In this document: piece by piece, positions 1 to 308 of the stretch
Numbering within the stretch: the first letter of the stretch is position 1
Layout: the number at the start of each line of letters is the position of its first letter
Assembly: GCF_003334385.1 (NCBI RefSeq)
Contig: NZ_QOWN01000208.1
Origin: Escherichia coli
GTDB lineage: Bacteria > Pseudomonadota > Gammaproteobacteria > Enterobacterales > Enterobacteriaceae
DNA: 308 nt
Strand: one strand, 5' to 3'
Made by a program: the position numbers and the translations under genes
The notes under the pieces: generated by a model
What the model saw: only the letters and a program-made list of their open reading frames with translations
The model's database searches: none
What the model was told of the DNA's origin: nothing

Positions 1-1
1 A

Positions 2-55
2 CCGCCACTTGCCATTCCGTACAGAAGTCGGATATCCTTCGCCCGAAAAGCATGA
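2..55 (+). CDS. Possible 3' end of an upstream protein-coding gene (partial; C-terminus ...PPLAIPYRSRISFARKA, TGA stop at 53-55)
   Basis: Of the three forward frames, only frame 2 has a stop (TGA 53-55; next in-frame TAA 74-76) before the terminator at 81-115; frames 1 and 3 read through the hairpin. If a forward-strand gene ends before the terminator, it must be in this frame. Only 17 codons are visible, several are rare (AGA, CGG, ATA, CGA), and the product cannot be identified. The gene may equally have ended upstream of the window. Confidence 0.2.
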   Translation, partial: PPLAIPYRSRISFARKA

Positions 56-80
56 AACACATTTCTGCCATGCTAAAGAG

Positions 81-115
81 AAACCCCGGTATCAGCAGAT
101 ACCGGGGTTTTCTTT
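81..115 (+). terminator. Rho-independent (intrinsic) transcription terminator
   Basis: Perfect inverted repeat: left arm AAACCCCGGTATC (81-93) pairs with right arm GATACCGGGGTTT (98-110) around an AGCA loop (94-97). The GC-rich core is 10 bp (84-93 with 98-107), followed by the T-rich run TTTTCTTT (108-115). An A-rich stretch upstream (AAAGAGAAA) would give a weaker U-rich tract on the reverse strand, so it may act in both directions. Confidence 0.85.
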
Positions 116-182
116 CATGTCCACCGATAATCCTGTTGGTAAAAACCGGTAATGGCATAAAAATTCTGAATATCTTCACATT

Positions 183-210
183 TTCACAAACTGACTGTGG
201 CGCGTATAAT
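183..210 (+). promoter_or_regulatory. Sigma70-type promoter: -35 TTCACA (183-188), 16-bp spacer, -10 TATAAT (205-210); predicted start near G217
   Basis: The -10 hexamer matches the TATAAT consensus exactly and the -35 matches TTGACA at 5 of 6 positions, with 16-bp spacing. The region upstream (about 157-182) is A/T-rich and UP-element-like. A purine at 217 lies 7 nt past the -10. There is no extended -10 TG. Confidence 0.6.
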
Positions 211-216
211 TTCGCT

Positions 217-308
217 GCGTTAGTGTTTTTTTGCCCGAGTAACAAAAACAACTCCTTAACTCTAATCTTTGTCTGTCCCCGCAGCTCCGCGATCACTGCG
301 GGATTTTT
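217..308 (+). ncRNA. Candidate small regulatory RNA of about 90 nt (alternative: terminated 5' leader or attenuator of a gene beyond the window)
   Basis: The segment is bounded by the predicted promoter start (~217) and the intrinsic terminator at 278-308. It has no ATG; the only GTG (223-225) has no Shine-Dalgarno. It contains AACAAAAACAAC (241-252), an (ARN)4 pattern of the kind bound by the Hfq distal face, then CUCCUU (252-257), complementary to the AAGGAG Shine-Dalgarno consensus, and ends in a hairpin plus U-tail. I could not match it to any sRNA sequence I remember. Confidence 0.35.
278..308 (+). terminator. Rho-independent terminator (3' end of the candidate sRNA or leader)
   Basis: A 7-bp stem, CCCGCAG (278-284) pairing with CTGCGGG (296-302), with five G-C pairs and an 11-nt loop (285-295), followed by ATTTTT (303-308). 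The T-run reaches the window edge, so its full length is unknown. The T-tract lies 3' of the stem only on the forward strand, which gives the orientation. Confidence 0.65.

Follow-up and report, generated by a model that had tools for sequence, protein, structure and literature searches.

PasB is one of five prophage small RNAs (sRNAs) obtained by Hfq RIL-seq in EPEC E2348/69, where it occupies NC_011601.1 1466343-1466261 (83 nt) and ranks among the most connected accessory-genome sRNAs of the Hfq interactome (Pearl Mizrahi et al. 2021, PMC8550237). In an hfq mutant, its log2 changes of -6.8 and -2.4 reveal strong Hfq dependence. A 2026 preprint by Zhu, Shabalina and Storz describes PasB as widely distributed and embedded in an operon of phage structural genes. 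Neither report mentions pasB promoters or CRP. AgvB and AsxR (Tree et al. 2014) are similar to PasB: they are short Hfq-binding sRNAs that form inserts at fixed lambdoid-prophage positions, and their 5′ part varies whereas the 3′ part, terminator included, is conserved (in PasB, the variable part starts at position 233 of the DNA analyzed here). They differ in lying downstream of the late promoter PR′ rather than between genes I and J, and in being present in Rfam, where our sequence had no match.

Three CRP-controlled systems offer comparisons for the pasB promoter, as far as they are represented among the RegulonDB sites listed in Shimada et al. 2011. CyaR, like PasB, is an Hfq-dependent sRNA with a CRP-type site in its promoter (RegulonDB TTAGAAACCGATCACA at -42.5). 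However, CyaR is a core-genome, chromosomal sRNA activated by CRP from a class II site of 10.5 bits, whereas PasB is phage-borne and fits class I by its published 5′ end. The lac promoter region resembles that of pasB in having a CRP dyad of equal score (15.3 vs 15.1 bits) about 60 bp upstream of a weak promoter, together with an overlapping upstream promoter for which the same site lies at a non-activating distance. In contrast to lac, the pasB product is a prophage sRNA, the upstream pasB promoter (P1) is near-consensus where that of lac is weak, and one pasB half-site reads TCTGA. The kbaZ-agaVWA site TGTGAATCAGATCAGA (-60.5, 15.3 bits) shares with pasB one perfect half, one TCTGA/TCAGA half and the same distance class, but it is known from that listing as the control site of a sugar-catabolic operon, not of an sRNA. 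The PasB sRNA and its distribution are thus already known. What is new here is that a CRP-type site bounds the pasB module on the left and is its best-conserved element, a role for which we found no mention in the literature searched.

Prophage Setting and Identity of the sRNA Gene

The window, the whole 308-nt stretch of DNA analyzed here, matches about 1,650 complete E. coli genomes, with as many as six matches in one genome and each of them in a prophage. In a UPEC genome with an exact match, it fills a 340-bp gap between a tail assembly gene (lambda I) and gpJ. Both genes lie on the opposite strand, and the window is antisense to the late tail operon. This I-J tail-gene spacer of a lambdoid prophage is also the location in E2348/69 and in every homologue examined. 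A survey of 5,426 complete E. coli genomes gave 5,544 places with PasB-type modules, spread over 1,808 of the genomes (about a third); a single EHEC genome may have as many as 11. Distant BLAST matches extend the I-J module family to lambdoid phages, Stx phages among them, with identities as low as about 71%. Homology of family members to the window starts at 154-157, just 5′ of the CRP-like site described below. The PasB module is a self-contained antisense insert of lambdoid prophages between tail genes I and J.

The window carries the promoter and gene of pasB. Window 284-306, read as its reverse complement, is identical to the published PasB Northern probe AATCCCGCAGTGATCGCGGAGCT. The published coordinates fall in the I-J gap of E2348/69 prophage PP6, and this copy aligns with the window from about 155 through the terminator. 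Laid on the window, the published 5′ end is T232, a position deduced from RNA-seq coverage and from an approximate size on Northern blots rather than by a 5′-end-specific method, and the 3′ end falls in the U-tract cut by the window end. In agreement with the description by Zhu et al., the gene is intergenic within a phage structural operon and ends in a Rho-independent terminator. The features of this part of the window are as follows.

80-111, no strand assigned: GC-rich hairpin with T-runs on both strands, resembling a bidirectional intrinsic terminator (14-pair stem in the scan)
232-308, plus strand: PasB sRNA as published, from the probe and the E2348/69 coordinates mapped on the window (the 3′ U-tract continues past the window)
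265-269, plus strand: ATCTT, single-stranded and invariant, 5′ of the terminator (invariant alignment columns; unpaired in folding)
278-308, plus strand: Rho-independent terminator, with CCCGCAG at 278-284, CTGCGGG at 296-302, A, and a T-run from 304-308 onward (folding, and the scan, whose second terminator-like hairpin spans 286-302)

The region upstream of the module differs between lineages. Window 1-154 is lineage-specific, with 100% coverage in PPompW-type prophages; in E2348/69 and in the majority of Stx phages, its place is taken by a shorter sequence unrelated to it. A 47-aa open reading frame at 9-152 (TTG start) is probably no gene; it crosses the hairpin and this lineage-specific sequence. 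The hairpin at 80-111 lies between the sRNA module and gene J and is outside the conserved module. A GC-rich hairpin terminator in the tail-operon direction was seen between the PasB module and the J start in every lineage (window 80-111; L002 1431-1454; L008 219-242), with sequences unrelated between lineages. Such a hairpin would halt a non-antiterminated transcript running through gene I, antisense to PasB, ahead of J.

A Strong CRP-Type Site Upstream of pasB

An earlier note on this DNA had pointed out TCTGA-N6-TCACA at 165-180 as a 9 of 10 match to the CRP core TGTGA-N6-TCACA. This reading of the sequence was confirmed, with the halves at T165-A169 and T176-A180, the spacer atatct at 170-175, and C166 as the single core mismatch. 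The elements of the site are as follows.

155-164, plus strand: A-rich 5′ flank ATAAAAAT, the left edge of the conserved module and a mosaic junction (homology start at 154-157; alignments)
162-183, no strand assigned: CRP-like 22-bp dyad AATTCTGAATATCTTCACATTT, centre 172.5, 15.09 bits, the best-conserved promoter block
165-169, no strand assigned: left half-site TCTGA (consensus TGTGA, mismatch at C166), departing in 1 of 53 variants (TATGA)
176-180, no strand assigned: right half-site TCACA, perfect, invariant in 53 of 53 variants

The dyad was scored with a symmetrised 22-bp matrix built from the 186 RegulonDB sites with positions taken from Table S4 of Shimada et al. 2011 (PMC3105977), which recovered the textbook CRP consensus AAATGTGATCTAGATCACATTT. 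At 15.09 bits, the dyad ranks above 90% of these 186 sites (scored leave-one-out) and compares with 15.3 bits for lac, 15.0 bits for mglB and a known-site median of 10.1 bits. The earlier note had named a low weight-matrix score as grounds for rejection, and the score obtained is level with that of the lac site. The next-best position in the window reached 7.3 bits. The dyad has G168 and C177 at the most informative matrix positions (7 and 16, 0.93 bits each), and none of the 53 variants departs at either. Its flanks, AAT and TTT, fit the consensus AAA...TTT. The sole matrix penalty comes from C166 (-2.8 bits), and a TGTGA version of the site would reach 19.3 bits. C is the rarest base at position 5 of the left half, with 6/186 in the symmetrised counts, and 13 of the 186 sites carry it in one half. 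RegulonDB activator sites with a TCTGA/TCAGA half include, besides kbaZ-agaVWA (-60.5), that of epd (-70.5).

A match of this quality is rare by chance. Shuffles predict 0.11 occurrences of the core pattern with at most two mismatches, and the window contains one. A 15.09-bit match has a chance of 1.5e-6 to 3.8e-6 per position, or about 0.001 expected per window. In 1.07 Mb of phage DNA, 153 matches reached at least 14 bits; 135 of these were the same site in homologous modules, and only six other distinct sequences scored as high. By its matrix match, the flagged sequence is a strong CRP-type site rather than a marginal one. We consider it likely that CRP binds at 162-183.

Conservation of the Dyad across the Module Family

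IMG/VR loci were collected by terminator match alone (CCCGCAG-N8-16-CTGCGGGATTTTT) to avoid selecting on the CRP-like site. Among 71 distinct upstream sequences, 61 have the site at a fixed distance, and these gave 53 distinct 120-nt segments, the variants counted throughout. One departing sequence was found for TCTGA and none for TCACA. In the spacer, positions 170, 171, 172 and 174 depart in 6, 12, 23 and 4 sequences, and the outer flank position 163 departs in 23. All 10 half-site columns show at most one departure, a level reached by 30 of the 79 columns from 155 to 233 (hypergeometric P = 2e-5); because the variants share ancestry and recombine, they are not independent trials, and this value serves as a description and not as proof. 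The 5-6-5 frame starting at 165 was the best of all frames, with 1 departure vs at least 6 elsewhere. In a separate alignment of 16 representatives, the longest run of invariant columns was ATAAAA-TTCTGAA-nn-TCTTCACATTT.

At least six unrelated upstream sequences join the module directly 5′ of the A-rich flank. Although identity within the family falls to about 71%, the two pentamers are essentially invariant, and variation is seen in the spacer and in each of the two candidate -35 hexamers; the CRP-like site is conserved more strictly than either -35. As a sequence pattern, two constant pentamers around a freely varying spacer, with the module boundary at the footprint edge, mark a site that selection maintains for a dimeric DNA-binding protein. 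A still more distant member, in ECOR29 (L137 505-770), keeps AATTCTGAATTTCTTCACATTT despite a different terminator. This locus lies in a degraded prophage with a gpJ pseudogene, has a terminator stem of CCCCACAG...CTGTGGG, and retains GATAAT and TACAGT along with the CRP-like site.

The behavior of C166 is odd. It is nearly invariant, and no variant carries TGTGA, which would not be expected if selection acted simply on CRP affinity. Its retention could reflect tuning to a moderate affinity, an overlapping constraint, or a different protein.

Two Candidate Overlapping Promoters and the Geometry of the Site

As the earlier note had stated, the dyad adjoins a -35 hexamer. The promoter scan gave TTCACA at 183-188, a 16-bp spacer and TATAAT at 205-210, here called P1. 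Column conservation points to a further promoter, P2, composed of TGGCGC, 17 bp and TAGTGT and located 16 bp downstream of P1. The elements of both are as follows.

183-188, plus strand: P1 -35 TTCACA, the second copy of the repeat, lineage-specific (scan; 32 of 53 variants)
205-210, plus strand: P1 -10 TATAAT, predicted start G217 (scan; nATnAT in 50 of 53 variants, GTGCAT in 3)
198-203, plus strand: P2 -35-like TGGCGC, with T198 and G200 conserved, equal to positions 1 and 3 of TTGACA (column departures)
221-226, plus strand: P2 -10 TAGTGT, in the family TAnnnT, predicted start G233 (column departures)

P1 has 11 of 12 consensus matches, both in the window and in E2348/69, and is the only consensus-grade promoter that the scan found in the window. 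Given this match and the nATnAT that 50 of the 53 variants keep, P1 too is likely to be a genuine promoter in most copies. On the minus strand, the scan found no promoter over the CRP-like site, where manual inspection gave poor hexamers alone. The TTCACA direct repeat described in the earlier note exists, at 175-180 and 183-188, but did not hold up as an element: the second copy occurs in just 32 of 53 variants and is replaced elsewhere by TCCGGC, TTCTGT, TTTGCA, TCTGCA and others, leaving no invariant position in the hexamer. Because this copy is not conserved, the repeat is incidental. Judged from the aligned variants, it is a coincidence, in this lineage, of the right half-site and a -35 hexamer, not a repeated element. 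The second TTCACA was also considered as a further CRP half-site and rejected at the 7.3 bits of the 22-mer containing it, 170-191.

The conservation of P2 follows a different pattern. Positions 197, 198 and 200 each depart in one of the 53 variants, vs 11-19 at 199 and 201-203. In the -10 element, departures number 0 at T221, 1 at A222 and 0 at T226, compared with 30, 18 and 15 at the freely varying 223-225. P2, as a candidate defined by these columns, has its conserved bases exactly at the first and third positions of the -35 and at the first, second and sixth of the -10, the ones of greatest weight for sigma-70. Its predicted start is G233; the PasB 5′ end as published, T232, lies 6 nt past the P2 hexamer. 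The three variants with a ruined P1 -10 (GTGCAT) retain the CRP-like site, P2 and the terminator. In phage 1717-type copies, the promoter scan found no consensus promoter, as expected of an activator-dependent promoter. Ten IMG/VR copies have a Cu/Zn-superoxide-dismutase-like open reading frame with its own terminator inserted upstream on the sRNA strand (L029, e.g. 350-830; L035, L036, L055, L059, L061, L068, L104, L123 and L130). The CRP-like site and P1 are gone from these copies and the P2 hexamer is retained as TAATGT; PasB-family homology resumes at GTTAATGT (window 219), two bases before the hexamer.

We lean towards P2 for the RNA start, and only tentatively, because P1 is probably real and the published 5′ end was read from RNA-seq coverage together with a Northern size that is approximate. 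The end at 232 could instead arise by RNase E processing of a P1 transcript. RNase E prefers RN|WUU. A cut at U231/U232 would place G at +2, unlike this preference, which makes processing the less likely origin.

These starts determine how the site is classified. Class I CRP sites are centred near -61.5 (or -71.5, -82.5, -92.5), 5′ of a promoter that has a -35 and a -10 of its own. The earlier note had placed the site close to the class II position, and its measurement was reproduced: the centre is 44.5 bp upstream of the P1 start G217. The assignment does not follow, since class II sites, which overlap the -35, are centred near -41.5, and the activator sites of this class in the 186-site table span -39.5 to -43.5. 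No activator site in this table lies at -44.5 to -48.5, and the distance from the dyad centre to the P1 -10 (T205) is 32.5 bp vs 29.5 bp for class II. Relative to the published 5′ end T232, itself approximate, the dyad centre is at -59.5, and relative to the P2-predicted G233 at -60.5. Both values fall in the main class I peak of the table, which comprises 18 sites between -59.5 and -62.5. The near-class-II frame is probably wrong for this site, because -44.5 and 32.5 bp fall outside the range and the conserved P2 agrees with the published 5′ end.

Proposed Catabolite Control of PasB and Alternative Explanations

The strong and strictly conserved match to a CRP site suggests that PasB is probably under catabolite control. 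Our best explanation, which we hold tentatively and place a little short of an even chance, is activation of pasB by cAMP-CRP, acting at P2 from a class I position. In the absence of glucose, with cAMP high, a CRP dimer would bind the TCTGA-N6-TCACA dyad at the upstream edge of the pasB gene. From there, contact with the alpha C-terminal domain would let CRP bring RNA polymerase to P2, a weak promoter. Acting about 60 bp upstream of the T232/G233 start, it would promote synthesis of the approximately 83-nt Hfq-dependent PasB. For the near-consensus P1, which overlaps 16 bp upstream, the site at -44.5 would be unfavourable, and CRP may be neutral or inhibitory there, as for the overlapping upstream lac promoters. 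The analysis shows the identity of the gene, the quality of the match, the pattern of conservation and the fit of P2 to the published 5′ end; CRP as the bound protein, activation as its effect and P2 as the start acted on are inferred. Two points stand against P2 as the only target. P1, with 11 of 12 matches, should be active without an activator, and the conservation of its nATnAT pattern in 50 of 53 variants is left unexplained.

Expression data bear on this scheme in a limited way. Spot 42 is a CRP-repressed sRNA. PasB was higher in overnight static LB than in exponential DMEM, conditions that also differ in growth phase and oxygen, and Spot 42 behaved in the opposite way, about five-fold higher in DMEM (PMC8550237). 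The PasB contrast agrees loosely with CRP activation and is weak evidence, being confounded by growth phase. Our literature search found no ChIP, SELEX, footprint, binding or crp/cya results for this prophage promoter.

Other explanations of the conserved dyad were weighed against class I activation at P2. CRP might serve as a displaced class II activator of P1 from -44.5. P1 is the only consensus-grade promoter of the window and the dyad adjoins its -35, and activator sites are tabulated at -43.5 for malI and tdcABC, 1 bp closer. We regard this reading as unlikely, since it would put the site in the interval without tabulated activator sites and 3 bp too far from the -10, at a promoter that should need no activator. 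Moreover, the P1 -35 has no invariant position, its -10 is ruined in three variants that keep the CRP-like site, and the published PasB 5′ end lies 15 nt downstream of G217. A host or phage-encoded protein other than CRP, with a preference for the asymmetric TCTGA...TCACA, would account for a non-consensus C166 that stays nearly invariant although TGTGA would score 19.3 bits. The dyad can also be read as CTGAA-N4-TTCAC, reminiscent of the Cra palindrome. Cra (FruR) operators are TGAAAC/GTTTCA-type palindromes with a central CG. CTGAA-TATC-TTCAC lacks this CG, and the conservation fits a 5-N6-5 frame and not that of Cra: A170, which would fall within a Cra half-site, varies (A, T, G), whereas C179 and A180, beyond that half-site, are invariant. 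Cra was rejected on these grounds. The consensuses of FNR, ArgR, TyrR, PhoP, PhoB, OmpR, RcsAB, IHF, Fur and ArcA, compared over 160-190 on both strands, fitted more poorly than CRP. A phage-specific repressor is disfavoured by the wide range of immunity regions among the phages that carry the module. A non-CRP protein also seems an improbable occupant of the site.

Two further readings concern the role of the element rather than its ligand. The block might have no specific regulator and act as a polymerase-contact or DNA-bending element (an A-tract or UP-like sequence for P1 or P2) or as a preferred recombination edge. The distal UP-element consensus is AAAWWT. Window 158-165 matches it, and a mosaic junction lies at 155. 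However, the UP match fails from 166 on, G168, C177 and C179 are invariant though not A/T, and a UP element or A-tract would not yield two invariant pentamers around a variable spacer, so that we give this reading very little chance. Alternatively, CRP could mainly repress or switch, occluding P1 and redirecting polymerase to P2, and thereby change the 5′ end of PasB rather than its amount. There is a precedent in lac, where a single CRP site is tabulated as activator at -61.5 and repressor at -39.5/-46.5 for overlapping promoters, and P1 and P2 lie 16 bp apart with the -10 pattern conserved in each. Yet a single PasB size was reported (PMC8550237), and many family members have a very poor P1, which means that a switch cannot be the general function. 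CRP acting mainly in this manner is highly unlikely. The broader proposal that the dyad is the control point of a two-promoter switch (217 vs 233), operated by cAMP-CRP or by a regulator that prefers TCTGA...TCACA, is quite unlikely by our reckoning. If it were true, PasB would exist as isoforms with or without a 16-nt U-rich leader, and the activity of a phage-borne sRNA, possibly including pairing with antisense late tail transcripts, would be tied to the carbon status of the host, in an arrangement conserved across thousands of prophage copies.

Class I activation at P2 by cAMP-CRP gives a testable hypothesis on the timing of PasB, namely its production when glucose is absent and cAMP is high. 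If confirmed, a widespread, horizontally transferred sRNA would join the CRP regulon, and a phage insert would carry its own host-regulator site as its boundary. It would be a CRP-dependent sRNA promoter like that of CyaR and would involve no new mechanism; CRP-controlled sRNAs and host-regulated prophage inserts are already known.

Variation within the sRNA and Neighboring Terminators

Within the sRNA, the 5′ part (233-264) is highly variable and begins exactly at 233, whereas ATCTT and the terminator (265-308) are constant. With a conserved promoter upstream, this variable part lies at the expected place of a seed-bearing 5′ end. Its versions include GCCCGAGTAAC, GTCGTGACAT, CGGGCCAATA, GATGCCTGAAAA and others. 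The seed proposed by Zhu et al. lies in a region that includes the ATCTT at 265-269. At 240-252, the CA-rich stretch AACAAAAACAAC is similar to CACAACA, the target consensus of GcvB R1 cited in connection with AgvB, and by this analogy PasB might pair with GcvB as well.

The CA-rich stretch had also suggested AgvB or AsxR as the identity of the gene. This was rejected, as those sRNAs are encoded downstream of PR′ and measure 51-60 nt, and the Rfam scan of the window gave no match, merely sub-threshold chance hits over the upstream hairpin. The prophage sRNA svsR, which limits phage infection, is encoded at the 3′ end of cI and so is not this gene. In some loci, the terminator motif CCCGCAG...CTGCGGGATTTTT occurs two to three times within a few hundred bases (L019 249-497; L044 7727-8428; L072 324-1026). 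Because of this recurrence, neighboring genes for other sRNAs seem to share the PasB-type terminator stem.
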